Position numbers and translations under genes: made by a program. A model generated the notes under the pieces. That model ran no database searches, was not told the origin of the DNA, and worked only from the letters and a program-made list of their open reading frames with translations. Shown one piece after another: positions 4,517-60,266 of a stretch of 64,000 nucleotides of DNA. This DNA is from Verrucomicrobia bacterium UBA3783 (GTDB lineage Bacteria > Verrucomicrobiota > Kiritimatiellia > RFP12 > UBA1067), in assembly GCA_002369235.1 (NCBI GenBank), contig DFFF01000013.1:5150-69149 (forward strand), given 5' to 3'. Position 1 is the first letter of the stretch. Every line of letters begins with the position of its first letter.

Positions 4517-4519
4517 GCA

Positions 4520-5128: not shown

Positions 5129-6021
5129 GCCTTGCGCTCGAAAACGAACTTGCGGACTTTCTGCGCGGACACGAAATGCCGCATTCGTCGTTCCTTGCCA
5201 AAGAGGGCGATTTCGTGGGCGAGTGGCGCATTACCGCATTTCTCGGACGCGGTGCCATGGGCGAGGTTTTTCGCGCCGTGCGCGACCGGGATGGACAAAT
5301 CGCCGCCCTCAAGATTCTCGCCCGCGACGATGCCATCGCCAAGGCCCGCTTCAACCGCGAGGCCATAATCCTCAAGACGCATCCGCACCGCGCATTCCCG
5401 CGTTTCTTCGATTATTCATCTGGCGGCGAACATCCTTTTCTGGCGATCGAACTCTTGGAGCCTTTCCCGCTGCCTGATTCAGACCGCGATGTCGCTTCGT
5501 TCATGCTCGATTTGTGCGAAGGCGTGGGACTCTTGCATTCACTGGGAATCGTCCATCGCGACATCAAGCCCGAAAATATCATGCGCCGTCCCGACGACCC
5601 TAGACCGGTGCTTATCGATCTGGGGCTGGTCAAGGTGGACGAATCGCTCACCAGGTCCAATCTCTCCATGGTGGACGGACGCCTTGTGGGCTTGGGCACT
5701 CCCGGCTACTCCGCGCCTGAACAATTTTCGGGCGGCAAGATTTCCCCTGCGGCGGACATCCATGCGCTCGGCTCGCTCATCGACCAGTGCTTTTGCGGCA
5801 AGCCTCCGCGCCAGTGGGATCGGATTGTGCGCGGCGCCACTTCGTCGCTCCCGGCGCACCGCTACGCGACGGTGGCAATCTTCGCGCTCGCCATTCGCCG
5901 CCGCTTTTTCCTGCGCAATCTGTCCATCGCGCTTATCTCCATTATCGTCATCCTTGCCGCCGCCTGTCTTCTCCTTGCGCTTCAAGTGATTCCTCGCCTC
6001 GAAGGTCCCCTTGCTTTCTGA
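5125..6021 (+). CDS. Hanks-type Ser/Thr protein kinase with single C-terminal TM helix
   Basis: Gly loop 'LGRGAMGEV', 'ALKIL' lysine, catalytic loop 'HRDIKPENI', 'DLG' (DFG equivalent), 'SAPE'. C-terminal hydrophobic helix 'LSIALISIIVILAAACLLLAL'. ATGA overlap with the sigma gene. Confidence 0.8.
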   Translation: MSLALENELADFLRGHEMPHSSFLAKEGDFVGEWRITAFLGRGAMGEVFRAVRDRDGQIAALKILARDDAIAKARFNREAIILKTHPHRAFPRFFDYSSGGEHPFLAIELLEPFPLPDSDRDVASFMLDLCEGVGLLHSLGIVHRDIKPENIMRRPDDPRPVLIDLGLVKVDESLTRSNLSMVDGRLVGLGTPGYSAPEQFSGGKISPAADIHALGSLIDQCFCGKPPRQWDRIVRGATSSLPAHRYATVAIFALAIRRRFFLRNLSIALISIIVILAAACLLLALQVIPRLEGPLAF

Positions 6022-6030
6022 CGCGATTTT

Positions 6031-6039
6031 TGGTATAAT
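6031..6039 (+). promoter_or_regulatory. extended -10 element TGGTATAAT (window-wide consensus TTTTGnTATAAT)
   Basis: 'ttttTGGTATAATgtgcc' lies 9 nt upstream of the ATG at 6048, implying a leaderless or near-leaderless transcript. Confidence 0.45.
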
Positions 6040-9824: not shown

Positions 9825-9901
9825 CGGAGCGTAGCGCAGTCTGGTAGCGCGTTTGCTTCGGGAGCAAAAGGTCGAGGGTTCAAATCCCTCCGCTCCGACC
9901 A
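9825..9901 (+). tRNA. tRNA-Pro (anticodon CGG)
   Basis: Hand-folded cloverleaf: acceptor CGGAGCG/CGCTCCG, D-stem GCGC, anticodon stem TTTGC/GCAAA, loop TTCGGGA (CGG, G37), T-loop TTCAAAT, discriminator A, encoded CCA. Confidence 0.85.
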
Positions 9902-9967
9902 TTCCCGATTTAGAATATTCCCGACACATCCTAGTTTCTCGCTTTTCAAGTTCTCAAACTTCAATGT

Positions 9968-10079
9968 CAGCCTCCTTTGCCTTCGTAGTCTAGACTTCTC
10001 GACTTCGTAGTCCAGCCTCTTTGCCTTCGTAGTCTAGCCTTCTCGACTTAGAAGTCCAGCTCTCTAGACTTGGTAGGGC
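9968..10079. repeat. family-A intergenic repeat element (copy 1), internally duplicated ~45-bp units
   Basis: 'ccttcgtagtctagNcttctcgacttNgNagtccag' occurs twice in tandem. About 85% identical to a second copy at 39681..39832 in the same orientation. Confidence 0.6.
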
Positions 10080-11528: not shown

Positions 11529-11593
11529 CCGTCCCGCTTTTCGCCGCCCCGGACCGATTGGCACCATGGACTATTGTGTTTTGCGCGGATTTT

Positions 11594-11602
11594 TGATATA
11601 AT
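11594..11602 (+). promoter_or_regulatory. extended -10 TGATATAAT upstream of aspS
   Basis: 'tttTTGATATAATACacaaaaatatctAGGAGacATG'. A Shine-Dalgarno sequence (AGGAG) is present here. Confidence 0.5.
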
Positions 11603-28876: not shown

Positions 28877-29785
28877 ATGGGGGCATCGCGCCCTGCCAAG
28901 CGCCGCACGCTGGTGTCCGAAGCTCCAGTCGCCGGAGTCGGCACGTTTTTCGGCGGCAGAAAGCAGACTATCACCTTCGCCCCCGGCGAAAAGCCCGGGT
29001 GGTGGATACGCCGCATGGATCTGCCGGAACAGCTCGACACCCAGATGGACATCTCCAATCTCTGGACAAGTGCGCAGAATCTGGTGATGCGCTCTGGTTC
29101 TCCGCACAATTATTTGCGAATGGTCGAGCATATCGTCGCGCTCAAGCTCGGGCTGGATGTCGACAATGTGCTCCTCAAGGTGAATTCCGGCGATCCGCCT
29201 TTGTTCGACGCCTCTTCGCTTCCGCTCATCAAGGCCATGGAGCATGCGAAGATCGTGGAGACGGAGGATGACGCCACTTACGTGACTGTGAAAGAACCGG
29301 TCGCCTTCGGCGGCAAGCGCGGAGATTTCCTGCTGTTCCTTCCCGCCGAGGGAGGATCGAAGAATCTGCGCATCGATTGCGCGATCAGCTGGAATACGAT
29401 CATCGGGCGGCAGCGCGTGCGGTTTGACGTCACGCCGGAAACTTTCCGCTATGCGTCCGAGGCGCGCACCAACTGCACCTACCAGCAATATCTCGCGGCG
29501 ATGACGATCGGCAAACTCTTTGCCGCCACGCGCCATTGGGGATACAACAAGAAGAACATCCTCATCCACGGCAAAGACCGGTTCTACTCCGAGCCGCGCT
29601 TCCCCAAGGACGGTAAATTTCTGGAACCCGTGTGGCATCGCGCCACGCTCGACCTCATGGCGGCGCTTGCGCTTACCGGCGCCGACCGTTTTTGCGGCAC
29701 TGTGGTCAGCTATCGCGCCGGTCACACGCTTGATTGCGACGCCGTCCGCGCACTCTACAGGAACGATCTCCTATGCCGCGTCTGA
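28877..29785 (+). CDS. lpxC: UDP-3-O-acyl-N-acetylglucosamine deacetylase LpxC
   Basis: Collinear with E. coli LpxC ('RRTLVSEAPVAGVG', 'MVEHIVALKLGLDVDNVLLKV', 'YRAGHTLDC'). GGAAGG Shine-Dalgarno before ATG 28877. The ORF extends to 28754, which is an alternative start. Confidence 0.75.
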   Translation: MGASRPAKRRTLVSEAPVAGVGTFFGGRKQTITFAPGEKPGWWIRRMDLPEQLDTQMDISNLWTSAQNLVMRSGSPHNYLRMVEHIVALKLGLDVDNVLLKVNSGDPPLFDASSLPLIKAMEHAKIVETEDDATYVTVKEPVAFGGKRGDFLLFLPAEGGSKNLRIDCAISWNTIIGRQRVRFDVTPETFRYASEARTNCTYQQYLAAMTIGKLFAATRHWGYNKKNILIHGKDRFYSEPRFPKDGKFLEPVWHRATLDLMAALALTGADRFCGTVVSYRAGHTLDCDAVRALYRNDLLCRV

Positions 29786-30564
29786 AACTCGAAAAGCCGC
29801 TCGTCGTATTCGATATCGAGTCTACCGGAACATCGCCGCGCAGGGACCGGATAATCGAGCTTGCCGCCATTCGCGTCGCTCCGGACGGAACTGAAGAAAG
29901 CCGTTGCTGGCTGCTCAATCCCACCATTCACATCCCCGAGGAAACGACTGCAATCCACAAGATCGCCGACGAAGACGTGAAGGACTGCCCGACGTTCGCC
30001 GACAAGGCGGCGGAGATATTCGAGTTCTTCCGCGACGCCGCGCTCTCCGGATACAATGCCGACCGCTTCGACATCCCGATGCTCGAAGAGGAATTCGCGC
30101 GCGTCGGGATGAATTTCGGCGCCGCCGCAAGGCCGCATATCGACGTGCAGCGCATATACCACAAAAAAGAGCCTCGCGACCTTTCCGCCGCGCTCAAATA
30201 CTATTGCGGACGCGAGCACACCGGTGCGCATGGCGCAGAGGCCGACACCCGCGCTACGCTTGATATCCTCAAAGCCCAGCTCGAACGCTACGACGATCTC
30301 CCGGACTCCGTCGCCGCGCTCGACGAATATCTCGCGCCGCACGATCCGCTCAACGCCGACCGCAACGGGATGCTGCGCTGGAAGGACGGCGAGCTCACGA
30401 TAAACTTCGGCAAGAAGAAAGGCGAAAAGCTCAAAGACCTCATGTTCAACGAGCCTAAATACCTAAAATGGATAGTCGGCGGCGATTTCGATTCCGATGT
30501 GCGCATGATTGTCAAGGACGCGCTCGAAAACGGCCGGCTTCCGCCAAAACCCGCAGGAATATAG
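29773..30564 (+). CDS. DEDDh (DnaQ-like) 3'-5' exonuclease with C-terminal extension
   Basis: 'LVVFDIESTG' (Exo I), 'SGYNADRFDIPML' (Exo II), 'HGAEADTRAT' (Exo III). Confidence 0.7.
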   Translation: MPRLKLEKPLVVFDIESTGTSPRRDRIIELAAIRVAPDGTEESRCWLLNPTIHIPEETTAIHKIADEDVKDCPTFADKAAEIFEFFRDAALSGYNADRFDIPMLEEEFARVGMNFGAAARPHIDVQRIYHKKEPRDLSAALKYYCGREHTGAHGAEADTRATLDILKAQLERYDDLPDSVAALDEYLAPHDPLNADRNGMLRWKDGELTINFGKKKGEKLKDLMFNEPKYLKWIVGGDFDSDVRMIVKDALENGRLPPKPAGI

Positions 30565-30566
30565 AT

Positions 30567-32102
30567 ATGGCAGACTGTTCGTCCATCCGCAAATTCGCCA
30601 CGGCGGCTGATTACCGCAAGAACTTCATCGTCCAGAGCGAAATCGACAAATATCTCCCCGGCGGCAAACACTTCATCGACGAGGCGAAGATAAACGCGCT
30701 CATTTCGGAGATGGACGAAAAGGGTGCGCCCGATCCAGTGAAGGTAAGGGAGATAATCGCCAAATCGGAGGCGACGCGCGAAACTTTGACGCCGGAAGAA
30801 ACCGCGATTTTGATGCGGGTGTCCGACAAAAACCTCTTTGCGGAAATGGAAGCGGCCGCCGAGCGGATCAAAAAGACCGTCTACGACAACCGCATCGTCG
30901 TGTTTGCGCCCCTGTACATGTCGAATCTCTGCGTGAACGGATGCAAGTATTGCGGCTTTCGCGAGGGCAACAGCGAGCAGCGCCGCCGCGTGCTGACGAT
31001 GGACGAACTCAAGGAAGAGCTTGCGGTCGTCGCCGGGCGCATCGGCCACAAGCGGCTCATAGCCGTCTACGGCGAGCACCAGACCACTTCCACCGAGTAT
31101 ATCGCCGAGACTATCGAGACTTGCTACGCCAATCAGTTCGCCGCCCCGCGCAGCGGAAAGAAAGTGGGCATCCGGCGCGTCAACGTCAACGCCGCGCCGC
31201 TCCCGGTCGCTGATCTCAAAGTCTTGCGCTCGGTCGGAATCGGCACCTTTCAGGTGTTCCAGGAAACCTACAACCGCAAACTTTATGAAGAGATGCATCC
31301 GTCATGGTCGGTGAAGGGCAACTACGATTGGCGCACGACATGCTTCCATCGTTGCCTTGAGGCTGGCGTCGACGATGTGGGGCTCGGCGTTCTATATGGT
31401 CTTTGCGATTGGCGTTTTGAACTGCTCGCGACCATAATGCACGCCCGCGATCTGGAGCGCTGGTTCAACATCGGGCCGCATACGCTGTCCTTCCCGCGTC
31501 TGGAGCCGGCCTCCGGCACGCGCGTCCCCGAAGAGTCGCCATGGCTCATCGACGACGAGACTTTCCACCGCATCGTCGTCATCGCGCGTCTCGCGGTTCC
31601 CTATACCGGCATCATCATCACGGCGCGCGAGAGCGCCAAGAGCCGCAACGGCATCCTTGGCTGCGGCATGACCCAGCTCGATTGTTCCAGCAATATCGCC
31701 ATCAAGGGCTACAGCGATTTCGCCGACGAGGCGCATCAGGAAAAGGAGCGCCAGCAGTTCATGCTTGGCGACAACCGTTCGTTGGACGAGATGGTGCGCT
31801 ATCTCGCCTCGCGGGACATGATCACCAGCTTCTGCACCGCGGGCTATCGCTGCGGCCGCACCGGCGGTTGCATCATGGACGCGCTCAAGACCGGTCGCGA
31901 AGGCAAGTTCTGCAAAATCAACGCGGTGCTTACCTTCCGTGAATGGCTCGACGACTTTGCGTCCGACGAAACCCGCGCAATCGGCGACCGGCTCATCGAC
32001 AAGGAACTCGCAGGCATCAAAGAGTGGCTGCCCAAGTTCTATCCCTCGGTAATGAAGCAATATGAAGCCACGTGCCGCGGCGAACGCGACATCTTCTTTT
32101 GA
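30567..32102 (+). CDS. HydG-like radical SAM tyrosine-lyase family protein (ThiH/HydG clade) with non-canonical C-terminal Cys motif
   Basis: 120-aa N-terminal region then 'FAPLYMSNLCVNGCKYCGF'. Long C-terminal domain ends 'GERDIFF'. C-terminal Cys spacing is C-x5-C-x5-C-x13-C where HydG has CxxC-x22-C. Confidence 0.55.
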   Translation: MADCSSIRKFATAADYRKNFIVQSEIDKYLPGGKHFIDEAKINALISEMDEKGAPDPVKVREIIAKSEATRETLTPEETAILMRVSDKNLFAEMEAAAERIKKTVYDNRIVVFAPLYMSNLCVNGCKYCGFREGNSEQRRRVLTMDELKEELAVVAGRIGHKRLIAVYGEHQTTSTEYIAETIETCYANQFAAPRSGKKVGIRRVNVNAAPLPVADLKVLRSVGIGTFQVFQETYNRKLYEEMHPSWSVKGNYDWRTTCFHRCLEAGVDDVGLGVLYGLCDWRFELLATIMHARDLERWFNIGPHTLSFPRLEPASGTRVPEESPWLIDDETFHRIVVIARLAVPYTGIIITARESAKSRNGILGCGMTQLDCSSNIAIKGYSDFADEAHQEKERQQFMLGDNRSLDEMVRYLASRDMITSFCTAGYRCGRTGGCIMDALKTGREGKFCKINAVLTFREWLDDFASDETRAIGDRLIDKELAGIKEWLPKFYPSVMKQYEATCRGERDIFF

Positions 32103-32112
32103 TCAGTGCATT

Positions 32113-33069
32113 ATGGTCTCGGTAATCATTCCTACCCACAATCGTGCGGAAATGGTCGTGAAGTGCGTCCAAAGCGTACTTGCGAGCGAAGGCGTGGAGC
32201 TCGAGGTCGTCGTGGCGGATGATTGCTCCACGGATGATACGAGAGCGCGGATCGAGCGGATTTTCGGCGGCGAAGCGCGGGTAAAGTATGTGCGCACTGA
32301 ACGGAGCGGGCTTTCGGCGGCCGCCAGGAATTGCGGTGCACGCGCCGCATCGGGAGAGTATTTCTTTTTCCTTGACGACGACAATGAACTCATGCCCGAT
32401 GCGATAAAGGAGCTGCTGGAATGCTTCAGGCGCAATCCTCGCGTGCGGCTGGTCGCGCCGCTCGCCGTCCAGTGGCATGAAGACGGCAGGCGGACCGTGT
32501 GGACCTTGGGATCTCAGTTCAATCCCTGGACTTCCCGGTCCCGCGAGTATTTCGCACCGTCGACGCCGCTTGACGAAATGCCGCCGGCGCCGGTTGGGAA
32601 AAGCGATTTCCCCACTACCTGCAGTCCCAACGCGTTCATGGTGAGGCGCGAGACATTTTTGGAGGTTGATGGATTCGACGAGGGATACGGGATGCAGTTT
32701 GACGAGACGGATTTCGGGCTTAGGGTGACAGCGAACAACCCGAATCTGGGCATGATTTGCGCCAAGGCCATTACGCGCCATTATGGCTATATAGGCCATG
32801 GCGAGGTCGTCGCATTGCGGGCGTTGGGAATAGAGAATGTGCGGCGGGCGTATGTCTTCGGTCGCAACCGGGTCAAGTTTGCGCGGCGGCACTTTGCATG
32901 GTATCAGGCGCTGTCGGTGACGCTGGTGTTCGCGCCCTTGTTGGCTCTCTGGTACTGCACGGTCGCTCTGACAAACGGCCGCCCCGATATCGCCTGGGCG
33001 TATCTCAAGGGGACGCTGGCGGGGATCCTGGGGCTTTACGGCACGAAACTTTATGGTGGCGGCAGATAA
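32113..33069 (+). CDS. family 2 glycosyltransferase
   Basis: 'MVSVIIPTHNRAEMVVKCVQSVL', 'ADDCSTDDT', 'FLDDDN' (DxD). Confidence 0.7.
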   Translation: MVSVIIPTHNRAEMVVKCVQSVLASEGVELEVVVADDCSTDDTRARIERIFGGEARVKYVRTERSGLSAAARNCGARAASGEYFFFLDDDNELMPDAIKELLECFRRNPRVRLVAPLAVQWHEDGRRTVWTLGSQFNPWTSRSREYFAPSTPLDEMPPAPVGKSDFPTTCSPNAFMVRRETFLEVDGFDEGYGMQFDETDFGLRVTANNPNLGMICAKAITRHYGYIGHGEVVALRALGIENVRRAYVFGRNRVKFARRHFAWYQALSVTLVFAPLLALWYCTVALTNGRPDIAWAYLKGTLAGILGLYGTKLYGGGR

Positions 33070-34300
33070 CCAAGGCGCTGCGACCGGCCATTTCCGCAGA
33101 ATGGAGGGCTGGAATTATGAAAAAGGCGCTTCGTTTTTCATAACGATAGCAACAGCGCCGCGCCGTGCGCTTTTTGGGCGTATGGCCGGCGGCAAAATGA
33201 TGCTTTCCCCGCTTGGAATTGAGGTTGCGGCATCGCTTGAACGCATGTCAGGCTTGTCGCCGGCGATCAGCCTTTTTGGCCATGTTGTGATGCCGGACCA
33301 TATTCACTTCAATTGTCATCTTGCCGCCGGACTGGAGGCGCCGCTTAAAACGCTTGGCGCCGCCATCAGGAGTTTCAAGAACCATACTACAAAGGTGTAT
33401 AAGGCTATGCTCGCGAACTCGGTTCGCGAGCCTGCACTGCACTTCCCATCTCCCGCCAGTGCAGGTGTGCGCGATTCCTCTCCCGCCAGTGCAGGCGCGC
33501 GCGATTGCCATTCCGCCAGTGCAGGTGCGCTCGATTCCCCTCCCGCCAGTGCAGGTGCGCTTGATTCCCCTCCCGCCAGTGCAGGTGTGCGCGATTCCTC
33601 TCCCGCCAGTGCAGGTGCGCTCGATTCCTCTCCCGCCAGTGTAGGTGCGCGAACCATGTTCGCGCACACCCTATGGCAGCGCGGCTACCACGACCATCTT
33701 TGTCTTTCGCGCCGCTTCATAGATGCCACAGAACGCTATATCGCTTACAACCCGCTAAAGTGGCAGCTTATGCACGGTCCTGGCGCCGTGCGCGTAGTGG
33801 AACCGGTTTTTTCTCCGCGCCTCGACCCTGGCGATTATTGGAAAGCGGCAGGCAACCTCGCACTTATCGCGCTGGAGATTCCGCTGGTTTCGCTGCGCGT
33901 TTCGCGCGAGGTTGCCGATTTCGCTCCGGTTCTGGCGCGGATGCGCACCGCCGCCGAGCGCGGCTACGCAATCGCGAGCGGCTTTATTTCCAAAGGAGAA
34001 CAGGCAGTGCGCGATATGCTCTGCCATCTGCCGCAAGGCCGTCTTGTGCGTGTCAGGCCGTCGGCAATCCCCAATGCGCGCTTCCGGCCTGAAAGTATTT
34101 ATGTTCGCGCCATGTCCGAGGGACGGTATCTCGAGCTCGGGAAAGGCAATGAAGACTTTGATTTCTCGCGTTCGGCGTGTTTGGACGTAAACCGCGAGAT
34201 TATCGGCATGGCGGCGGCGGGGCGCGGTCTCTCGCTGTATTTCAGAAAAGACGGACTCTACAAACTCTCTGGCGGCGGACAATGGCGAAAAACAAGGTAG
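33053..34300 (+). CDS. RAYT-like HUH tyrosine transposase (IS200/Y1 superfamily) with internal repeat insertion and ~165-aa C-terminal extension
   Basis: HUH 'GHVVMPDHIHF'. Y-motif block 'LWQRGYHDHLCLSRRFIDATERYIAYNPLKWQLMHG' matches the REP-associated tyrosine transposase signature. An alternative start at 33101 would avoid overlap with the GT2 gene. Confidence 0.6.
   Translation: MVAADNQGAATGHFRRMEGWNYEKGASFFITIATAPRRALFGRMAGGKMMLSPLGIEVAASLERMSGLSPAISLFGHVVMPDHIHFNCHLAAGLEAPLKTLGAAIRSFKNHTTKVYKAMLANSVREPALHFPSPASAGVRDSSPASAGARDCHSASAGALDSPPASAGALDSPPASAGVRDSSPASAGALDSSPASVGARTMFAHTLWQRGYHDHLCLSRRFIDATERYIAYNPLKWQLMHGPGAVRVVEPVFSPRLDPGDYWKAAGNLALIALEIPLVSLRVSREVADFAPVLARMRTAAERGYAIASGFISKGEQAVRDMLCHLPQGRLVRVRPSAIPNARFRPESIYVRAMSEGRYLELGKGNEDFDFSRSACLDVNREIIGMAAAGRGLSLYFRKDGLYKLSGGGQWRKTR
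33451..33652 (+). repeat. in-frame 30-bp tandem repeat (6 full + 1 partial unit) inside the RAYT-like CDS
   Basis: 'tcccgccagtgcaggtgcgcKcgattcctc' repeats encode 'PASAG(A/V)RDS(S/P)' decapeptides. Units differ by 1-4 nt. Confidence 0.9.
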
Positions 34301-35886
34301 AGGATTTACAGAGCAAGAAGGTCTGTGCAGACTCGCGAACCCTGTTTGCGGGCGCCGGCGGGCAAATGACGCCGCAATCTGCGCCGATCCGCGAGTTCCA
34401 GCGCCGCAAGCTTGCACAACTGCGCACGGCCAGTTTCGCTCCGTCGCCTTATGAAGGCAAAGTGACTTTGCTTATCTACACCTTTCCTCAAAATCCCGAC
34501 GGCGCGGACTTCGATTGGATAGAGTTTTCGATTTTGCAGAGCTGGTCGGTTTTGGGCAAACTCAAGACGGTCATCGTGGCGAACTCCCGTTTTGCCAAAT
34601 TGGACGCATTTGCCGCCGTTCATCCGGAAGTGGAAATCCAGCTTGCGCCGAACCTGAAGCCCGGCGACTTGGATTCGATGAGCCGGGATATGCTCGCGAA
34701 CTTGTGGCGGCGGTTTTCCACCCCGGAGGTGCTCGTGATCCAGGACGACGGATTTCCGCTCGGCGGCAATCTCGGCGATTTTCTCGGCAAATTCGATTTC
34801 ATCGGTGCGCCGATTTATGCGCCCGGTCTGCGCCGCAAGCTCTTTTATGCCGTCCATCTCCCCTGCTTCAACGGCGGCTTTTCGCTGCGCTCGCGGCGTT
34901 TTTGCCGCTATGTATCGCGTTTCTGGTGCCTCTTCGCCAGATTTTTCATCCGCCCGGGGTCTTTCCTTTCCGGCGAAGATGTCGTATTCTGCTTCCTCTC
35001 CAGATTGAATCCATACGCCTACTTCAAATTCAAGATGCCCGGAGAGCGTGATGCATTGCGTTTTTCCGTCGATACCCTCGGCGGCATTTTGCCTTTGCCC
35101 GGGAAGCGTCCGTTCGGCTTTCACGGCAAAGCGACTTTCGACGCGCTCGAAAAACGGAAAACCGGCAGGCTTGACGAGGTGACGGTTCTCGCGTATCACT
35201 TCTGGGATGAGGCGCGATATGAAAGCGAGTTTGCCCGTCTGGCGCATTCTTTCGAGGAGACTTGGCGATTTTGCGGGGAACTGGAAAGCGTCATTGTGGC
35301 CAACAAGGTGGAGAAGTGCCTTGAGGATTTTGCCGCCGCGCACCGCAATCTGAAAATTCAAGTCGAGCCTTCGCTCGTTCCAGGCAGGATTTTCACGATG
35401 AGCGCCGATATGAACGGCAAGTTGTACACGCGTTTCAATACGCCTTATGTCCTGATAATTCAGAACGACGGCTATCCGCTGCGCTCCGGACTTGAGGAGT
35501 TTGTCGGCAAATGGGATTTCATCGGTGCGCCGTATATTGGACTTCAGTGGTGGAAGCGGCTTGTCGCCGGACTTGCGAACTACCATGTGCAAAACGGCGG
35601 CTTTTCGCTTCGTTCCCGCGAAATCTGCGAGGCCGCCGCCAAGCTCTGGAACGAAAAATACCGCAAACTCGGTGATTGCACTGCGGCATCGGAGGATATT
35701 TTCTACACTTCTACGCTTGTGAGGAGAGAGCCCGCATACCGGCGCAAATTCCGCTTTGCGACAAGTCGCGAGTCGCTGGAATTCTCATGGGATGCCAGCG
35801 TTCCGGTTCCCATGCCGTCAAAACTCCCGTTCGGCTTTCATTGCGACAAGTCGCTCGCGGCGCTGAATCTTCGCCATGCTGTTTAA
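34282..35886 (+). CDS. internally duplicated putative glycosyltransferase-like protein (two ~230-aa homologous halves)
   Basis: Both halves share 'VIVAN..', 'VLVIQDDGFPL / VLIIQNDGYPL', 'KFDFIGAPIYAP / KWDFIGAPYIG', 'NGGFSLRSR', 'LPFGFH'. Start uncertain (ORF from 34177; ATG 34282 used). Confidence 0.45.
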   Translation: MAKNKVEDLQSKKVCADSRTLFAGAGGQMTPQSAPIREFQRRKLAQLRTASFAPSPYEGKVTLLIYTFPQNPDGADFDWIEFSILQSWSVLGKLKTVIVANSRFAKLDAFAAVHPEVEIQLAPNLKPGDLDSMSRDMLANLWRRFSTPEVLVIQDDGFPLGGNLGDFLGKFDFIGAPIYAPGLRRKLFYAVHLPCFNGGFSLRSRRFCRYVSRFWCLFARFFIRPGSFLSGEDVVFCFLSRLNPYAYFKFKMPGERDALRFSVDTLGGILPLPGKRPFGFHGKATFDALEKRKTGRLDEVTVLAYHFWDEARYESEFARLAHSFEETWRFCGELESVIVANKVEKCLEDFAAAHRNLKIQVEPSLVPGRIFTMSADMNGKLYTRFNTPYVLIIQNDGYPLRSGLEEFVGKWDFIGAPYIGLQWWKRLVAGLANYHVQNGGFSLRSREICEAAAKLWNEKYRKLGDCTAASEDIFYTSTLVRREPAYRRKFRFATSRESLEFSWDASVPVPMPSKLPFGFHCDKSLAALNLRHAV

Positions 35887-39050: not shown

Positions 39051-39671
39051 ATGAAACCGACGACAAACGCGATTTTCGGGTCTCTTTTCGAACGCTACCC
39101 CGCATTGTCGGCATGCCGCGATGGGGTCATGGCCGCGTTCGAGACTTTGCTTTCCGTGTATGCCCAAGGCGGCAAGGCGCTCATTTGCGGCAATGGCGGC
39201 AGTGCGGCGGATTGCGAGCATATTGCGGGCGAGCTGATGAAAACCTTCAAGAAACGCCGCCCCTTGCCTGCGGATATCGCATCGAAACTTCCGCCTGGAC
39301 TCGCATCGAAACTGGAGGCGGCATTGCCTGCGATTTCACTCGTTTCGATGACGGGCATAATGTCGGCTGCGGCGAACGATGTGTCGTGGGAGGTGGCTTT
39401 TGCCCAGCAAGCGCTCGGCCTCGCGAAGAAGGAAGACGTGCTTATTGCCATATCGACGAGCGGAAACAGCGCAAATTGCGTTGCGGCGGCGGAAGTCATG
39501 AAGGCGATTGGCGGCAAAACGGTCGCTCTCACCGGCGAAAATCCCTCGAAACTCGCTGAAATCTGCGATATTGCGATAAAAGTGCCGGCAAGCGAGACTT
39601 ACCGGATTCAAGAGCTGCACCTGCCGGTCTACCACACGATTTGCGCAATGCTCGAAGAAGAACTGTTTTAG
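39051..39671 (+). CDS. gmhA: phosphoheptose isomerase GmhA (SIS domain)
   Basis: 'ALICGNGGSAADCEHIAGEL', 'LIAISTSGNSANCV'. Confidence 0.8.
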   Translation: MKPTTNAIFGSLFERYPALSACRDGVMAAFETLLSVYAQGGKALICGNGGSAADCEHIAGELMKTFKKRRPLPADIASKLPPGLASKLEAALPAISLVSMTGIMSAAANDVSWEVAFAQQALGLAKKEDVLIAISTSGNSANCVAAAEVMKAIGGKTVALTGENPSKLAEICDIAIKVPASETYRIQELHLPVYHTICAMLEEELF

Positions 39672-39680
39672 TCGGGGAAC

Positions 39681-39832
39681 TCTTTCCTTCGTAGTGTAGA
39701 TTTCTCGACTTCGTAGTCCAGCCTCTTTTCCTTCGTAGTCTAGGCTTCTCGACTTAGAAGTCCAGGCTTCTAGACTTAGAAGTCCAGCTCTCTAGACTTG
39801 GTAGGGCGGCCTTCTAGACTTGGCAGGGCGGC
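39681..39832. repeat. family-A intergenic repeat element (copy 2)
   Basis: Same unit and orientation as 9968..10079, with extra 'cttctagacttagaagtccag' sub-repeats. Confidence 0.6.
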
Positions 39833-39955
39833 AATCCCATCTCTGTGCATCGCGGATGCTTGCGCACCCTTCGGGTTTGGCTTCGCCAAATCTGCCTCAG
39901 CCCTCAGCCCTAACTTATTGGATATTGGATGCTGGCTGTTGGATATTGGATATTT

Positions 39956-40050
39956 GCACATTCAACACCGTCTCGACCTCCGTAGCCTTGGCGTAGGAGG
40001 TTCTCGACCTCCGTAGCCTTGGCGTAGGAGGTTTCCCGTTTTTCCGCCGC
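39956..40050. repeat. family-B repeat element; left arm of inverted pair flanking the giant gene
   Basis: 'gcacattcaacaccgtctcgacctccgtagcc' (39956..39987) is the exact reverse complement of 46698..46729. Internal 'ctcgacctccgtagccttggcgtaggagg' is duplicated. Preceded by a 'ttggatattggat' x2 direct repeat. Confidence 0.6.
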
Positions 40051-40094: not shown

Positions 40095-40110
40095 ATCGGG
40101 CAGTTGTTCA

Positions 40111-40197
40111 TATTCCTGCACTGTACTTGGAACAAGCGTTTAGTTTCGTAGCGGTTATCTAGGCGTTTTATTTGCTTCCAAGTACAGTGCAGGGGTA
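40111..40197 (+). promoter_or_regulatory. 5'-leader hairpin: 18-bp perfect stem (22 bp with wobbles) enclosing a 43-nt loop
   Basis: 40115..40132 'cctgcactgtacttggaa' is the exact reverse complement of 40176..40193. The Shine-Dalgarno 'agagagga' (40209..40216) lies just downstream. Confidence 0.5.
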
Positions 40198-40224
40198 TGA
40201 ATTGAAAAAAGAGAGGAAAAGATT

Positions 40225-43200
40225 ATGCAAAACGTTGCCAGGAAAACAATTCGCATGGTCATGAAAATCGCGCGCACCGTCGCGCTACTACTCGCCGTCG
40301 GCGCGGCTGGCGGAGCATGGGCAGATACGCCGTCATTGCTCAACTACATGAGCTTCGATAACACGGCTAATAAGGGTGTCGTCATACAGAAAGACGCAGG
40401 CACAATTGACCCAGTTAAGATAGATGGTGATTATGTCAATTACACAACAACTGACAATGCAAAGTTCGGAAACCATGCTTACCAAGCCAATAATGGTACT
40501 ATCGGGCTTCAGGATAACGATTCTGGCCTAGTCTCAAATGATGGTGGCTGGACTATCAGCTTTTGGTTCCATCCAAATGGCCAGTCCAACTGGAACTCCT
40601 TTTTTGGTTTCGGGTTGTTCAATGGGGACAATTATTTCTTTGTGAAGAATGGTAGCAACGCTTTCATTATCTACAAAGATACCACGTCAACAGATGATAG
40701 CGCACTTGGAACGCCTGCTCTAGGAGCTGTATCATATACGGCGTCGGCTTGGAATCACGTTGTGCTGGCATGTGCGGCTGGCACCGGCACCGTGACGCTT
40801 TATGTAAATGGTTCGTCGTGCGGTTCATTCACAATTGCAACTGACACATCCCTTCGAGAAGTGCTTTTGTGCCGCGGTCGCTGGCATAGCGATTCCAGCT
40901 CAGCATTTTATCGCAACAAGCAAACAACCTGGTTCGACGACTTCGCGCTGTTCGGCGGTGCTCTGACGCCATCGGCTGTCAAGACGATAGCGATGGGTGC
41001 GGATACTGCGCTTGGCCTCTACAATGCCGGCGAGTTAAACTTCTCTCGTTCTATCAATGTCAACTTCTATTATCTCTACAGTGGTAGTACGCCGTACACG
41101 GCTGTTTCCTTGGGCAACAATGGAACTGCCGCAGTGAACTCCAGCAGCGAAGGTTACGGCCAATACGCGGTAGAAGGTACATACTGGTCGGATGTGCTTG
41201 CAACGAGCACGGCGGCGCAAAGCGTAAAGGTGTTTGATGGCTCTGCCACATCTGATTCCACCGTCACTGCGACGATATCTGGCGCCAATGGCGGTGATTT
41301 CACGCAAAGCGCCTTCGATCATCATATCATGAGCGGCTACATTTCCGACTCGTCATCAAAGCTTGAGCCGACCGTCACATTTGCCAACATACCCTTTGCA
41401 AACTATCGGGTAGTGCTATATTTTGCCGTCAGTGGAGGCTCTGCCAGCAAGAAATACGGCTATGTCACGCTGAACGATACGATCAATGTCGCGGGCAACG
41501 GCAGCACGACCATATATGGCGATGGAGGAGCGACGGGATGGGGCGGCGCAGCAGTTGCAGCAAACAGTAAGAACAACATACTCCTCGGTCAGAACACGCT
41601 TGTTTCGCCTGTAATTGTAAACAATGCATCGGGCACTCTCAAAGTAAAAAGCCACGCGCTCTATAGCGGCAACACTGCTACATACTATGCAGGCCTTGCG
41701 GCAATTCAGATAGTCGAAGTTACGCCGAATTCAACTACGGGCACATATACATTCTCTCCCGCTGCCGATACGACGACTGCAATAACAAGTTCCTCAAGCT
41801 GGGATGACCTTCCTACCGGCAAGGGCGAAGATATAACTATTTCCATTTCAGGCGATGCGACGATTAATGTTGATAGGGATATGGCGTTTGGTACGATCAC
41901 GATTGCGAGCACCAGCGAAAGCGCGGCGACGCTAACTTTCGCTGGCTCGTGCCTCATCAACGCCACGCAAGTCAATGTCCCTGCCAATGTCACGGTGAAG
42001 TATGCTTCGTCCGTTTCCGGTGGCGCACCAATTATCAATGCGCCTGTCGTGCTCAACGATGCCACGGCCGCATTGGAAATCGCCGCTCCGGCGACGATGG
42101 CAAATGCGATTTCCGGTTCCGGCGAGGTCGTCGTATCCGCGAATGCAGTCGTGTTTACTGTTAAGAATACTTTCACAGGCGGTCTCACCGTGAAGAGCGG
42201 CGGCCTCGCAAAGACAACCGTCGCGGCGACAACAGGCGGCGGATTCGGTGGCACTGGAACAAATCCACAAGTTGGAACAATTACAGTAGAGAATGGCGGT
42301 ACCGTTGACGTCGCGAATTGCTATGGCAAGTGCGTGTATTCGCTCACAATCGAAGGTGATGGCGTGGATAATCAAGGGGCTGTCATTTGTTCATCTGCAA
42401 TAGGTGAGACCGAAAGGCAAATTACAGGTATTACGCTTACGGGAAACGCGTCGATTTCTTGTGCCAACAACTGGGGGCTTATCGCAAACGAATATACTGC
42501 AACAACCTTGTCATTAGGGTCTTATACACTCGAAAAGAAAGGCTCTGCGGCATTTTGGCTTACACGCACAACAGTGAGCGGTACGGGAACTTTGGATATC
42601 AAGGAAGGCATACTTGCTACAGGCGGTGCCACAAGCGGTACTTTAAATACAAGGGGCAATTGGACATATACAAGCAATTCGTCCGCACCTATCGTCATAC
42701 GAAATGGCGCCGCATTGACGGTCAACAATGCATCGTTGCGGGCAGATTCACTTACACTTGATTCCGGCAGTTCCATGAGTGTTGGCGGCGGCGCGTATGC
42801 GCTTGTCAACAATTCTGGCACATTGACTGCAAACGGCTCTGTTTCCGTAGCCGGAACGCTTTATATTGGCTGGAGCGGCAACGCCAGTTTCGTCGTCGGC
42901 TCCGACGTTGAAGTTACGGGCACAGGGCTTATTCATTTGATGTCAACCGCAACCATTACCAAGCAGGCGAGTGGCACGATCACCATCGGTCCTAATGCGA
43001 TGGTGCGGTGGATAGACTGCTCGTGGACTAACGAAAATGCTGGTGACATATTCAGGGGAGATGGAACATTGAGTTTGGAGGGAACTGGAGGAAACTATTC
43101 GTACTATCCAGATCCGTGTGCGTTTCCGGGAACGCTGAATGTAGTTACCCGAAACGGCACCTCCGATTACCACGCATATTACGCATACTTCAGTGGCGAC

Positions 43201-46200
43201 CCAAGTAAATTCACGGCAAGACCAAAGCTTCTTTTGGCTTGTGGAACGGAAGCGGATACTGGAAGTGTCCAGCTTGGAAGTCCAGCGCTTGGCAAAACGA
43301 TGAGCGTACGCGATTTGAATGGGCATGCTGTTATTTATCCTTGGGCAAGCAGCTCTGGCACGTTTACAATAGATACGCTTCAAAGGTCGGACACATCCTT
43401 CAACGGCATATTCGTGCAATATGCTGCTAATCAAGGTATTTCTGCGCTGACAGTCCGTGGCGAAACGGAAGCGACGCAGACGCACAGCCTTACGCTAACG
43501 AAGGCAAGCACGACTACTGGCGCCGCGACTGTCTGCGACAACGCGAAACTTATCTTCACCTCTTCCGGCTCGTGGGCGAACGGTACGGTGTCTGTTGCCA
43601 ATGGCGGGTATCTGGAAGTGAACAACTCCGACCCTGTCGCTTCGACGCTCGATTTGCAGTCTGGCGGCACGATTACAATCAAGACTGTCACGACGACAAC
43701 AACGACTGGAGAAGGCGACGAGGCCGTGGAAGAAACGACGACGAGCGTAGTGCCGATAGCGGCCGGCACGGTGACGTTCCCGGATTCCGGCGAGGCGGTG
43801 ATCGACATCTCTGCAATTCCCGATCTTGCTTCCAAAGAAAGCGTGGCAATAATCAACGCGACGACGTCGCTTGATTCGGACGTCTCGAAGATTCGTCTTA
43901 TCGGCAAGCCCTACTCGCTGAAGGTCGATGGCAATGCGCTCAAGGTCGTGAACGATGGCGGTCTTGTCTGGGATTCTGCGAAAGGCTGGGGTGAGAAGGA
44001 TGCCGCGAAATATGACGAGGCGACGATAACTTCGCCTGGCACGGTCGCGCTTGACGGCACGAGCCTCGCGTTCGATAAATTGACTCTCGCCGGCTCTGGC
44101 ACGGTCTCTTTCTCGCGGACCGGCGACGAGACGATTACGGTGAACAACATCGTTATTGGAAGCGGCGTGACTCTGGATGTGTCGGCGGCGCTGAACATAT
44201 CGGCTGGAGCGAGAATAACCGGCGACGGAACGCTGAACATTCCGAACGGCGTCACTCTTACGCTCGACGGCGTGACATGCTCTGCGAAGATAACCGCGCA
44301 AAACGGCGGCACTCTCGTAACGAAGGGCGCGACGGAGCTCTCTAACGATAACAACAACTTTGCATATGGCAGCCTTATCAAGGTCCTGACTGGCACGGCG
44401 ACGGTCAATGCGCATTTTAGTGCGTATAATTCTGCCGGTCGTGGTTTCCACGGCAACATCACGATTGCCGAAGGCGCGACATTCGTGAACAGCAAGACGG
44501 AATCCTTCGACTGCAACGCCGATTCGTCGCATCCGATTGTCGTCGATGTCTATGGCACTCTTTCAATGGGTTCGACCCGCTGGACGCTTGGCAACTACAA
44601 CACGATAAAGTTGCACGAAGATGCGACGATTACGGGTGAGGGAGATTCCTCATCTAACGGTGCGCTTAACGGTGCGCTCGATGTCGAGAACAATGTCACG
44701 ACATTCAAGATTATCGCGGACGGCAACGCGACGATACCCGCCAATATCCGAACCCGTAGCAAGATGCTTGTCGAAGTGTCCAACGGAAAGAATCTGACAT
44801 TCTCTGGGTCGCTTATAAGTTATGGCGATGGCAGCATCATGGAAGTAGTTTCCGGCCAAGTGACTACGACTACGCTGCCGGGCTTCAAAGTCAAGATCGA
44901 CGAAGGCGCGACATTCACGCTGAAGGATGCCGTATGGTCAGGTTCTACCGCCGACAAGTTCTCCGGCACAGGCACGCTGGAGTTGTATTCTGCGACCGCG
45001 TCCAAGGAGCATACGGCGACAGGTTCGACATTTGCCGGCATTGTCAAGTTCTCGAACGAAGGGGACAACCAGTGCAACATCAAGCCGTCAGGAGCCGCGA
45101 TGTTCACCGCGAGACCCGAATGGATCGCGAATGCATCAAGCATCCACCTTGGCGACGCCTCCAGCTACTACAACAATCTGGAGCACCCGATTCAAATCAG
45201 GAACTTGTCCGGCTCCAGTTCGGCCACGCTGAGAGCTGTGTATGGTGGCGCACTCTACAACTTCCTCATAGAGACTGTGCAGGAACGCGATACAGAATAC
45301 GCCGGCGAATTCACGCAAGGCGAGGCAACCATCAACTCCCAAAAAGTTGGGCGTTATACCAACCTGAAAGTCTTGGGCAACAATGCAAACGAGGTCCACA
45401 CCCTGACATTGTCGAAAGCGCAGAATACCGGAAACAATGTAGGACATTATGCAAGCACGTTGACGGTCTCAGATTACGGCAAGGTCAAGTTCACGTCCGT
45501 AGCAGGATGGGGGAACGGAACAGTAATCGTTGGAGCGAACGGCTATCTAGAGTCGTCTAGTTCTGCGGAATCCATTGCGGCGACGCTGACGCTGCAGGAT
45601 GGCGCGACGGTGGTGCGTGGTTCGCAACCTGTCAAGGCGACGGCGCTGACAGCGCTTGATGCCAATGCGACAATCAAGATTGCTTTTGCTGATGGCGTTA
45701 CGCCGGAAGATGGCATGGTCGTGTTGAGCGGCACTTGGGCTACAACACCACCGGATGCGGCGCGCTTTGCGTTCGCAAATTGGTTTGCATATGATGCTTT
45801 GTATGAATTTGAAGTTACCTCAACTGCCGTAAATATTAGGGAAAAGACAGAGACTGTTAGTGTTGATGAAACACCCATTACAGTCGGGTATCCCTGGATA
45901 GCGACAGCACAACGGAATACAACCCAAACGCCAGGTGCTAATTTGAACGACCTTGCGGATCTAAATACATATCTTACAAACAATGGTCTCAACGGCATGC
46001 CGCGTGCGGTGTCGTACCTGCTGGGGCTTGAGAATCCCGACGATGCGACGACGGCGTTTGTAATGGAGTCGGCGAGTGTTTCGTCGGGTGAGGGCAACAC
46101 TCCCGTTCTCACCTTCACGGGTAAGTCATATTCGACCGACCGAGCTACAGTGACATACAAGGTATTCGGCGGCGATTCGCCTGACAGTATGAGTGAAGTC

Positions 46201-46299
46201 ACTCCGGATAGCAATTCTGGCAATGTAATAACAGTGACAGTTCCCACGGAGTCGAGAGTTAAATATTATAAGTTGGAAATGACTGTCACGCCGAATTAA
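40225..46299 (+). CDS. 2,024-aa secreted giant protein: signal peptide + LamG/concanavalin-like lectin domain + long Thr/Ser/Gly/Asn-rich parallel beta-helix-type repeats
   Basis: Sec signal 'IARTVALLLAVGAAGGAWA'. LamG-like block ('WTISFWFHP', 'TVTLYVNGSSCG', 'WFDDFALFGG'). Downstream repeated 'G(T/S)xT(L/V)xxxG' beta-solenoid segments with an obvious internal duplication ('HSLTLTKASTTTGAATVCDNAKLIFTSSGSWANGTVSVANGGYLE' vs 'HTLTLSKAQNTGNNVGHYASTLTVSDYGKVKFTSVAGWGNGTVIVGANGYLE'). No PEP-CTERM and no autotransporter barrel. Confidence 0.8.
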   Translation: MQNVARKTIRMVMKIARTVALLLAVGAAGGAWADTPSLLNYMSFDNTANKGVVIQKDAGTIDPVKIDGDYVNYTTTDNAKFGNHAYQANNGTIGLQDNDSGLVSNDGGWTISFWFHPNGQSNWNSFFGFGLFNGDNYFFVKNGSNAFIIYKDTTSTDDSALGTPALGAVSYTASAWNHVVLACAAGTGTVTLYVNGSSCGSFTIATDTSLREVLLCRGRWHSDSSSAFYRNKQTTWFDDFALFGGALTPSAVKTIAMGADTALGLYNAGELNFSRSINVNFYYLYSGSTPYTAVSLGNNGTAAVNSSSEGYGQYAVEGTYWSDVLATSTAAQSVKVFDGSATSDSTVTATISGANGGDFTQSAFDHHIMSGYISDSSSKLEPTVTFANIPFANYRVVLYFAVSGGSASKKYGYVTLNDTINVAGNGSTTIYGDGGATGWGGAAVAANSKNNILLGQNTLVSPVIVNNASGTLKVKSHALYSGNTATYYAGLAAIQIVEVTPNSTTGTYTFSPAADTTTAITSSSSWDDLPTGKGEDITISISGDATINVDRDMAFGTITIASTSESAATLTFAGSCLINATQVNVPANVTVKYASSVSGGAPIINAPVVLNDATAALEIAAPATMANAISGSGEVVVSANAVVFTVKNTFTGGLTVKSGGLAKTTVAATTGGGFGGTGTNPQVGTITVENGGTVDVANCYGKCVYSLTIEGDGVDNQGAVICSSAIGETERQITGITLTGNASISCANNWGLIANEYTATTLSLGSYTLEKKGSAAFWLTRTTVSGTGTLDIKEGILATGGATSGTLNTRGNWTYTSNSSAPIVIRNGAALTVNNASLRADSLTLDSGSSMSVGGGAYALVNNSGTLTANGSVSVAGTLYIGWSGNASFVVGSDVEVTGTGLIHLMSTATITKQASGTITIGPNAMVRWIDCSWTNENAGDIFRGDGTLSLEGTGGNYSYYPDPCAFPGTLNVVTRNGTSDYHAYYAYFSGDPSKFTARPKLLLACGTEADTGSVQLGSPALGKTMSVRDLNGHAVIYPWASSSGTFTIDTLQRSDTSFNGIFVQYAANQGISALTVRGETEATQTHSLTLTKASTTTGAATVCDNAKLIFTSSGSWANGTVSVANGGYLEVNNSDPVASTLDLQSGGTITIKTVTTTTTTGEGDEAVEETTTSVVPIAAGTVTFPDSGEAVIDISAIPDLASKESVAIINATTSLDSDVSKIRLIGKPYSLKVDGNALKVVNDGGLVWDSAKGWGEKDAAKYDEATITSPGTVALDGTSLAFDKLTLAGSGTVSFSRTGDETITVNNIVIGSGVTLDVSAALNISAGARITGDGTLNIPNGVTLTLDGVTCSAKITAQNGGTLVTKGATELSNDNNNFAYGSLIKVLTGTATVNAHFSAYNSAGRGFHGNITIAEGATFVNSKTESFDCNADSSHPIVVDVYGTLSMGSTRWTLGNYNTIKLHEDATITGEGDSSSNGALNGALDVENNVTTFKIIADGNATIPANIRTRSKMLVEVSNGKNLTFSGSLISYGDGSIMEVVSGQVTTTTLPGFKVKIDEGATFTLKDAVWSGSTADKFSGTGTLELYSATASKEHTATGSTFAGIVKFSNEGDNQCNIKPSGAAMFTARPEWIANASSIHLGDASSYYNNLEHPIQIRNLSGSSSATLRAVYGGALYNFLIETVQERDTEYAGEFTQGEATINSQKVGRYTNLKVLGNNANEVHTLTLSKAQNTGNNVGHYASTLTVSDYGKVKFTSVAGWGNGTVIVGANGYLESSSSAESIAATLTLQDGATVVRGSQPVKATALTALDANATIKIAFADGVTPEDGMVVLSGTWATTPPDAARFAFANWFAYDALYEFEVTSTAVNIREKTETVSVDETPITVGYPWIATAQRNTTQTPGANLNDLADLNTYLTNNGLNGMPRAVSYLLGLENPDDATTAFVMESASVSSGEGNTPVLTFTGKSYSTDRATVTYKVFGGDSPDSMSEVTPDSNSGNVITVTVPTESRVKYYKLEMTVTPN

Positions 46300-46405: not shown

Positions 46406-46575
46406 TTTCACCCAATGCGTTTTCACTTTTCACCCAGTCGATTTCGTTTTTCACCTGGTCAATTTCATTTTTCACCTGGTCAATTCCGCTTTTCACCCAA
46501 TGAGTTTTCACTTTTCACCCAGTCGATTTCGTTTTCCACCCAATGCGTTCCGTGTGTTCCGCGTATTCCGTGGTT
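46406..46575. repeat. non-coding tandem array of ~21-22-bp units (about 7 units)
   Basis: Units: 'cacccaatgcgttttcactttt', 'cacccagtcgatttcgttttt', 'cacctggtcaatttcattttt', 'cacctggtcaattccgctttt', 'cacccaatgagttttcactttt', 'cacccagtcgatttcgtttt', and a decayed unit. Confidence 0.8.
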
Positions 46576-46629
46576 AATATCAAACCCGCCGAAGGCATCC
46601 CAAGAAACTCTGCGTCTCTGCGTCTCTGC

Positions 46630-46729
46630 GTTAAAAAAAAAAAAACACAGGGAACCTCCTACGCCATCCTCCTTCGCCAAGGCTACGGAGGACAAGTGGC
46701 TACGGAGGTCGAGACGGTGTTGAATGTGC
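46630..46729. repeat. family-B repeat element; right arm, inverted
   Basis: Reverse complement of 46698..46729 equals 39956..39987 (32/32). Also shares the 'ttggcgNaggagg' block and a poly-A/T tract (A13 at 46633). Confidence 0.6.
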
Positions 46730-47921: not shown

Positions 47922-47957
47922 CTTGTTTTTGCACCATTGCATTCTTGCGCGAATTTT

Positions 47958-47966
47958 GGTATAATA
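47958..47966 (+). promoter_or_regulatory. extended -10 TGGTATAAT upstream of carB
   Basis: 'aaTTTTGGTATAATACaccaaac'. 33 nt before the ATG at 48000; weak Shine-Dalgarno 'ggaaagg'. Confidence 0.5.
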
Positions 47967-60162: not shown

Positions 60163-60257
60163 TATTTTCCTTGCGCAAATCAATAGGGTAAAATCGAAAA
60201 CTCACCGGCGGCGGTCGCGGGTGCGGCATCTGCAGCCTTGCATTTCCACACGATTTT

Positions 60258-60266
60258 TGATATAAT
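60258..60266 (+). promoter_or_regulatory. extended -10 TGATATAAT for the GreA-domain gene
   Basis: 'cgaTTTTTGATATAATACcgcc'. 30 nt before ATG 60296. Confidence 0.5.

Follow-up and report, generated by a model that had tools for sequence, protein, structure and literature searches.

The gene considered here occupies positions 33053..34300 of a 64,000-nt stretch of DNA from Verrucomicrobia bacterium UBA3783 (contig DFFF01000013.1; hereafter the window, whose coordinates are used throughout), and all features described at this locus lie on the plus strand. The open reading frame (ORF) encodes a 415-residue protein with two domains and intact catalytic motifs: an HUH-Y1 domain, resembling that of the transposases associated with repetitive extragenic palindromes (REPs) and known as RAYTs or TnpA_REP, and a C-terminal DprA-like Rossmann domain. 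Within the HUH-Y1 part, the gene carries a tandem array which had been described, in an earlier reading made from the letters alone (the sequence-only reading), as an insertion of repeated decapeptides. What was inserted is a DNA element with hairpin ends; it did not evolve as a protein module. We consider it probable that the gene specifies a RAYT-type HUH-Y1/DprA-like enzyme with cognate REPIN-like elements that tolerate translation.

The HUH-Y1 domain

The HUH-Y1 core is encoded in two halves. The first (33110..33427, beta1 to alphaC) carries the HUH metal-binding motif on beta3, PDH83-I-H85F (PDHIHF, residues 81-86; H83-I-H85 at 33299-33307). The second (33665..33787) comprises beta4 and the tyrosine helix, with W208 encoded at 33674-33676 and Y229-IAY-N233-P234 at 33737-33754; LWQRGYHDH...YIAYNPLKWQLMHG corresponds to residues 207-242 and LWQRGYHDH...ERYIAYNPLKW to residues 207-237. 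A single predicted catalytic tyrosine, Y229 of ERYIAYNP, sits on the helix after beta4 (residues 220-241 in the model described below), and Y229-I-A-Y-N233-P234 fits the class-2 signature Y---NP (PMC6006769). Two database gene calls start at M17. That start was rejected in favour of 33053, since the RR pair directly upstream of M17, R15 and R16, shows at least 90% conservation in homologues.

A search of a large protein collection returned 536 homologues, of which the 120 best-scoring (>400 bits) were aligned. These are mostly full-length, are ~45-65% identical and range from 322 to 469 aa, with the exception of one 692-aa fusion. H83, H85, W208, Y229 and Y232 are invariant in the 120 sequences and N233 and P234 are at least 90% conserved, which bears out the intact HUH and Y motifs of the sequence-only reading. 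In total 53 columns are invariant across the 120 sequences (~55% identical to the window protein), including the HUH, Y and DprA-like motifs. The few named homologues are proteins from Kiritimatiellae metagenome-assembled genomes (MAGs), one of them named RayT. Pfam gave no match to the full protein, no precomputed Pfam domain was present among the 119 non-fusion matches listed of the 536 homologues, and searches of PDB sequences with the single protein and with two profiles returned nothing significant.

An AlphaFold2 model built with the 120-sequence alignment has a mean predicted local distance difference test score (pLDDT) of 80 and a predicted template modelling score (pTM) of 0.70. It contains two confident domains, with residues 126-203 disordered and the array at pLDDT <50. 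The N-terminal domain has the HUH-Y1 fold, its best HUH structural match being E. coli TnpA_REP. By secondary-structure order the insert sits between helix alphaC (97-123) and strand beta4 (213-216).

The C-terminal DprA-like domain

The protein continues for ~170 aa after the Y1 core, in agreement with the C-terminal extension noted earlier. Residues 246-413 (33788..34291) form a Rossmann-like (SLOG) fold, and the invariant positions here include S280/L281/S284, S309-G-F-x-S-x-G-E316, N341, P346-E347, G365-N366, R373 and N380. Neither Pfam (including DprA/Smf, PF02481) nor NCBIfam gave a match to the C-terminal 173 aa. An exhaustive search with 170 aa of this domain against 1.84 billion proteins yielded 96 cluster representatives only. 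Its distant relatives (~30-38% identity) retain the two-domain layout; the so-called extension is therefore a conserved DprA-like domain, and it marks out a small family of Y1 fusions. In some of these distant relatives the N-terminal domain reaches the gathering score of the Pfam model Y1_Tnp (PF01797, 23 bits), with 32.5 bits for P0166, 26 for P0197 and 23.0 for P0190.

The Y1-family survey of Quentin et al. (PMC6006769) describes C-terminal domains of the HTH and DnaA_C types and subclass-specific ones, none of them DprA-like, and our literature searches found no fusion of Y1 or HUH with a DprA or SLOG domain. By analogy with DprA, the domain probably holds single-stranded DNA (ssDNA). PADLOC returned no match, so that a Shosta-like role in defence is unsupported despite a fold match to ShosA.

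A hairpin-ended element within the gene

The spacing between the MPDH motif and the conserved tryptophan is 128 aa in the window gene and 46 aa in uninterrupted relatives, giving an insert of ~82 aa. It includes the array (33449..33651), in which Tandem Repeats Finder recognises 6.8 copies of a 30-bp unit with 88% matches. The array is in frame throughout and encodes the PASAGxRDSS decapeptides, as the sequence-only reading had it.

That reading had also held that the gene has no flanking REP hairpins. Instead, two perfect hairpins, each with a 10-bp stem and a 3-nt loop, bracket the array. The left one (GCTCGCGAAC-tcg-GTTCGCGAGC, 33409..33431) encodes LANSVRE; the right one (GTGCGCGAAC-cat-GTTCGCGCAC, 33645..33667) is preceded by GTAG and encodes ARTMFAH. 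A third, degenerate hairpin (CTCGCGAAC-cct-GTTTGCGGG, 34332..34352) follows 34 nt past the stop codon in the same orientation as the right end. Thus hairpins are found inside the ORF (33409, 33645) and shortly after it (34332), and none lies upstream of the gene. Folded as ssDNA, the left hairpin has a dG of -12.4 kcal/mol (z -5.4) and the right one -12.9 kcal/mol (z -5.8); the third folds weakly (z -0.9). The fold signal resides in the two flanking hairpins rather than in the array units.

The core CGCGAACNNNGTTCGCG, allowing at most one mismatch, occurs at three sites only in the 64 kb, all of them at this gene, the third starting at 34334. The left end and the reverse complements of the right end and of the downstream copy align over ~31 nt, with stem differences compensated. 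As the left end aligns with the reverse complement of the right, the ends are inverted copies, an arrangement that is REPIN-like. Each 30-bp unit is a copy of the sequence just before the right hairpin and of part of that hairpin's left arm; neither the unit nor its CCAGTGCAGG core is found elsewhere in the window, where 0 chance matches are expected. The sequence-only reading had proposed that relatives be checked for the gene and its number of units. Besides the window allele, which has 7 units, there are four alleles with 97-99% identity to it outside the array; these have 7, 4, 3 and 2 units, and all are in frame. Unit number changes quickly among such close alleles. The gene carries, in frame within its alphaC-beta4 loop, a REPIN-like element of variable unit number.

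A separate 26-nt inverted repeat at 40107-40132 and 40176-40201 (92% complementary, 43-nt spacer), just 5' of a 2024-aa ORF, holds CCTGCACTG and CAGTGCAGG, a 9-mer pair also present at the array's left edge; this may be coincidence.

Hairpins and loop length across the gene family

The window gene was compared with loci from GTDB species genomes and from contig look-ups, giving a set of 49 distinct genes, and a perfect hairpin was defined as a stem of at least 7 bp with a loop of 3 nt. The alphaC-beta4 loop is enlarged in 40 of the 49 and has a minimal spacing of 46-47 aa in the other nine. At least one perfect hairpin lies in the insert in 39/40 of the insert-bearing genes, and 27/40 have two or more that bracket it; none of the nine uninterrupted genes has a hairpin at the loop. 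Enlarged loops and hairpin pairs are thus linked across the family. The relatives compared come from MAGs of gut and rumen Kiritimatiellae. All 49 genes have an intact ORF.

The position and design of these hairpins are regular. The first usually begins 106-148 nt past the MPDH codons and the last usually stops 2-25 nt before the Trp codon. Stems are usually TGGCC(G/A)A(A/G)C and relatives of it, with compensation that is always perfect, and the inverted orientation is evident because left loops read nCA and right loops TGn. Two semi-conserved peptide motifs of the alignments, 'LAEHSSA' and 'DG[RQ]TxFGQ', result from translation of the two hairpins, each in another frame. The hairpin pair also brackets the low-complexity C-terminal tails of several homologues. 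In the 692-aa fusion (P0115; 8001-10079 of loci L006/L007), the family gene is joined to an NAD-dependent epimerase by a linker containing 'DGRTAFGQT', that is, by a hairpin element. Perfect hairpins have a density of 1.29/kb in the gene plus 250 nt, against 0.053/kb in 548 kb of flanking sequence. In a neighbour-joining tree the uninterrupted genes branch basally and the insert-bearing genes all fall in one clade, with inserts of different length scattered across it. This pattern suggests one old colonisation of the loop followed by rapid turnover.

Dispersed elements in relatives

In relatives, in-frame copies of the element are dispersed in other genes. Locus L036 has three copies of the element, each of ~100-130 nt, within 2.5 kb. 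One is an in-frame linker that fuses two glycosyltransferase (GT) halves, GT1/GT4-like and GT8-like, into a 931-aa ORF (2334-5129); the second forms the C-terminal tail of a DUF5672 ORF (4916-6010), and the third lies in the loop of the family gene. Through such read-through, MAG annotation may come to include gene fusions, whether false or real. In loci L018 and L019, a thiamine pyrophosphate (TPP) enzyme carries the element in frame in its N-M linker, and a sugar dehydratase carries it in a loop, likewise in frame.

A metagenome scan with TGGCCRAACNNNGTTYGGCCA gave at least 120 matches, and the figures that follow apply among the matches listed. Perfect palindromes are present in 100 loci, 19 of which also have a family gene; the copies are scattered over contigs from rumen and gut. 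On contigs with a GC content of at least 0.5, 56/60 hairpins fall inside stop-free ORFs of at least 200 aa; since 91% of random positions fall in such ORFs, the hairpins do not favour extragenic DNA. They occupy all three reading frames (28:22:6). Of ten host ORFs sampled, eight have a clear Pfam identity, namely the cysteinyl- and valyl-tRNA synthetases (CysRS and ValRS), RsmB, a PurF-like amidotransferase, a peptidase C10, an AroC-AroD fusion, a Sel1-repeat protein and a Kdo transferase.

Matches of low GC content are probably unrelated. In four metagenome contigs of 36-39% GC (L082, L105, L146 and L150) the palindrome TGGCCAAAC-ata-GTTTGGCCA lies in a recurring short ORF, 'WPNIVRPHFLNMVRNMRKFLVK'. 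This low-GC palindrome is probably an unrelated repeat family of another organism.

Copy number and genomic context

The window contains one copy of the gene. In GTDB species genomes, 52 loci were found at 1-2 copies per MAG, nearly all in gut or rumen MAGs labelled Kiritimatiellae, Verrucomicrobia or Lentisphaerae. The sequence-only reading, which had placed a single-copy gene in a lipopolysaccharide (LPS) core gene string, is upheld in so far as the gene is low-copy and lies in a sugar or LPS operon. It had further called the gene domesticated, as opposed to an ordinary active RAYT; this is no real contrast, because a single copy is the usual state of RAYTs (PMC5581495). Two divergent paralogues ~9 kb apart on contig SUWC01000006.1 (L023 and L040) both have loop inserts, and two family loci each are also present in MAGs UBA3750, H07633-L1_cleanbin_000036 and SRR873595_bin.42.

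Upstream of the gene in the window is a GT2 glycosyltransferase gene (32062..33069; Pfam PF00535, E 7.6e-32), the 3' end of which overlaps it by 17 nt. Downstream it overlaps an ORF with two DUF5672 domains (34177..35886; Pfam PF18922), which starts either at the GTG at 34177 or, according to a gene call in locus L001, at the ATG at 34282; a GT9 gene and an HldE-like gene come next. The overlap coupling on both sides described by the sequence-only reading is therefore real, but its downstream partner, which had been thought GT-like, is a double-DUF5672 protein outside the recognised glycosyltransferase families. Directly 5' of the GT2 gene are a radical-SAM/BATS (HydG/ThiH-like) gene (30468-32102) and an RNase T-like exonuclease gene (29734-30564), a pair that has the same position in L001 and is unusual company for an LPS-core string.

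The neighbours in 47 loci almost always run in the same direction as the gene, typically at gaps of about -4 to +50 nt. Upstream neighbours (n=42) include a TPP enzyme in 9 cases, GT1/GT4 in 8, GT2 in 2 and DUF5672 in 2. Downstream (n=44) there are 9 NAD-epimerases/dehydratases, 4 DUF5672, 3 GT1 and 2 GT2 genes, along with GT8, RgpF, DegT and acyltransferase genes. The gene has sugar-pathway neighbours, and tnpB is absent among them. Look-ups of exact protein matches led to glycan clusters in 6/6 places.

Other repeats in the window

The dispersed tctcgacNtcgtagNc repeats (families A and B) had been put forward by the sequence-only reading as candidate REP/REPIN partners. They were rejected: these repeats (39664-40032, 46406-46729) are intergenic tandem repeats around the 2024-aa ORF, have no sequence relation to the CGCGAAC hairpins and show no link to the gene. 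The ORF itself (40225-46299) is flanked by a perfect 32-nt inverted repeat (39956-39987 and 46698-46729), and both of its flanks (39664-40032 and 46406-46561) carry 22-, 31- and 21-bp tandem repeats of the TCTCGACyTCGTAGyC and TTTTCACCC types. The 6.7-kb segment could be invertible, or the flanks could merely share repeats.

A 122-nt repeat at 9958-10079, adjoining a tRNA gene (9825-9898), recurs with 74-79% identity at 39664-39829, in the repeat-rich intergenic region at 39.7 kb. A 32-nt motif that ends in TTTTTGGTATAAT / TTTTGATATAAT and has TTGC upstream is present in four copies (6008-6039, 11571-11602, 47934-47965 and 60235-60266) and resembles a shared strong promoter. Rfam recognised two tRNAs only in the window.

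Interpretation and alternative explanations

The observations are best accommodated by a RAYT-type enzyme with its own translatable elements. The N-terminal domain would be a class-2 HUH-Y1 nuclease/ligase of the TnpA_REP type, with H83, H85 and Y229 as predicted catalytic residues. The insert, consisting of two inverted ends of ~31 nt around the array, would be translated as a disordered linker in a tolerant surface loop between alphaC and beta4. Insertions at this site lie close to the REP-recognition region (PMC6006769). By analogy with REPs and RAYTs, the hairpins are likely cognate substrates of the enzyme, and the gene, its internal element and the 3' hairpin would then make up a REPtron-like unit with translatable REPs. 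Units may be gained and lost by slippage, or by cleavage and rejoining at the base of a hairpin. In relatives, many genes contain in-frame hairpins of the same design, a distribution like that of the Rickettsia palindromic elements (RPEs).

Several points weigh against this interpretation. That the enzyme recognises and processes the hairpins is inferred from analogy with TnpA_REP and REPs. The RAYT identity suggested by the sequence-only reading is supported by the invariant motifs, by the structural match to TnpA_REP and by REP_Tyr_transpos (NCBIfam NF047646) as the sole hidden Markov model match, but curated cut-offs are missed: NF047646 requires 80 bits and gives 48.9 with the full protein and 58 once the array is removed, and Y1_Tnp reaches only 14.5 bits when the array is deleted. 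The DprA likeness is at the level of the fold only, a nine-sequence profile compared with the PDB giving HpDprA at E 0.4 over the matching region. No further copies of the hairpin type exist in the 64 kb, and in this organism it is known only at the gene; the dispersed copies are of the GGCC type found in relatives, with a stem sequence different from the CGCGAAC type of the window. For most of the metagenome contigs, assignment to the lineage depends only on their source, their GC content and the peptide context. The whole array, folded as ssDNA, shows no advantage over shuffled sequence (z -1.4). Finally, a model of an enzyme and its cognate hairpins leaves the steady placement of the gene in glycan operons unexplained.

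A bolder version can be offered tentatively, as possible though not to be expected. In gut and rumen Kiritimatiellae, a vertically kept HUH-Y1/DprA-like enzyme would maintain a population of stop-free hairpin-pair elements within essential genes and within the loop of its own catalytic domain, giving rise to gene fusions, C-terminal tails and linkers that evolve fast and possibly remodelling surface-glycan operons; such a system would be previously undescribed. The elements could live inside essential genes, such as those for aminoacyl-tRNA synthetases, PurF and sugar enzymes, because they are stop-free in the three observed frames.

An unlikely alternative is that the insert is a low-complexity linker made by slippage, with hairpins that are incidental or are slippage hot spots, in a protein with an unrelated host function. 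The disorder of the array in the model, a unit length that is a multiple of 3, a copy number that varies as in ordinary variable-number tandem repeats and the poor folding of the whole array are all in keeping with such a linker. Slippage does not account for perfect hairpins of one design bracketing the insert in 27/40 relatives and at none of nine uninterrupted genes, nor for their inverted orientation and compensated stems, nor for the recurrence of the identical element in other genes of the same contigs.

More doubtful still is a cis-regulatory role, in which the protein would autoregulate its own gene or the glycan operon, or the hairpins would act on RNA stability or translational coupling. 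Hairpins do cluster in and just after the gene and at junctions of co-directional, overlapping operons, and two papers report that REPs affect mRNA turnover (PMC3479197, PMC3733652). Such a role is difficult to reconcile with the position of most dispersed copies among the matches listed, which is deep in unrelated ORFs (e.g. aminoacyl-tRNA synthetase genes), with the occurrence of both orientations and with the lack of an Rfam match.

The glycan context invites a further proposal, to which we give little credence: that the enzyme generates surface-glycan diversity, cutting and rejoining ssDNA at hairpins of gene junctions so that glycosyltransferase or sugar-pathway cassettes are shuffled, loosely as at the attC hairpins of integrons, with the DprA-like domain feeding RecA. 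It draws on the glycan clusters in all six places looked up, on the close co-directional neighbours in 47 loci with their TPP-enzyme, GT and NAD-epimerase genes, on the elements at GT-GT and DUF5672-gene junctions in L036 and on the read-through epimerase fusion P0115. Against this, elements are equally common in housekeeping genes, no rearranged pairs of cassettes were seen, and the genomes may simply be rich in glycan genes. That the gene is an inactivated relic, a RAYT broken by the repeat insertion, is very improbable: the sub-threshold model scores would fit, but the ORF is intact in 49/49 genes, 53 columns are invariant, the model is confident outside the loop and the insert is in frame in every allele.

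Relation to known systems

The function and persistence of RAYTs and their REPs or REPINs are a long-standing puzzle, and a RAYT-type enzyme with a candidate substrate within its own gene, the unit number of which varies between strains, offers a built-in read-out of activity. With RAYT/TnpA_REP proteins (class 2 of the TnpA_Y1 family; E. coli YafM, 4ER8; PMC6006769, PMC5581495) the protein shares the Y---NP signature and a low copy number. It differs from them in falling under the NCBIfam and Pfam cut-offs, in adding the 170-aa DprA-like domain and in the place of its hairpins, which are inside the ORF rather than flanking it and, in relatives, intragenic rather than extragenic.

REP insertions within tnpA_REP genes have been described for subclass 2.4 and some members of subclass 2.8, at another loop and with no additional domain (PMC6006769). 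Subclass 2.4 (Bertels group 4) likewise has cognate repeats in its own coding sequence, and its core-domain insertion is variable in length and sequence. Its members, of ~194 aa and lacking a large C-terminal domain, are found in Cyanobacteria and Bacteroidetes; they have the insertion between beta3 and alphaC and the motifs NH[IFV]H and YIxNNP (PMC6006769). The family described here differs in its site (alphaC-beta4), its motifs (DH[IV]H and YIAYNP), its DprA-like domain and its Kiritimatiellae hosts.

Compared with DprA/Smf and ShosA of the SLOG superfamily, the C-terminal domain lacks a Pfam DNA_processg_A match and SAM or winged-helix domains, and it is fused to an HUH nuclease. A Y1 nuclease joined to a DprA-like domain is a new architecture, and it points to a possible route for the capture of ssDNA.

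The design of the dispersed elements recalls that of the RPEs, in-frame selfish DNA (reviewed in PMC10969869): these too are short palindromes that enter unrelated and often essential genes in frame, at sites that the protein fold can accommodate. The likeness is one of design. In-frame insertion of this kind is seen in relatives only (the TPP-enzyme linker, the dehydratase loop, the GT fusion, CysRS, ValRS, RsmB, the PurF-like protein and the Kdo transferase), the studied gene being the sole case in the window. Such inserts create spurious fusions and tails in MAG gene calls and so matter for annotation. Unlike the RPEs, the present elements are hairpin pairs of smaller size, to which tandem arrays are often added, and they are found together with a Y1 enzyme that is a candidate for mobilising them and has one in its own gene. 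With translated hairpins in their housekeeping genes, the relatives would be a second lineage, after Rickettsia, to have in-frame palindromic elements.

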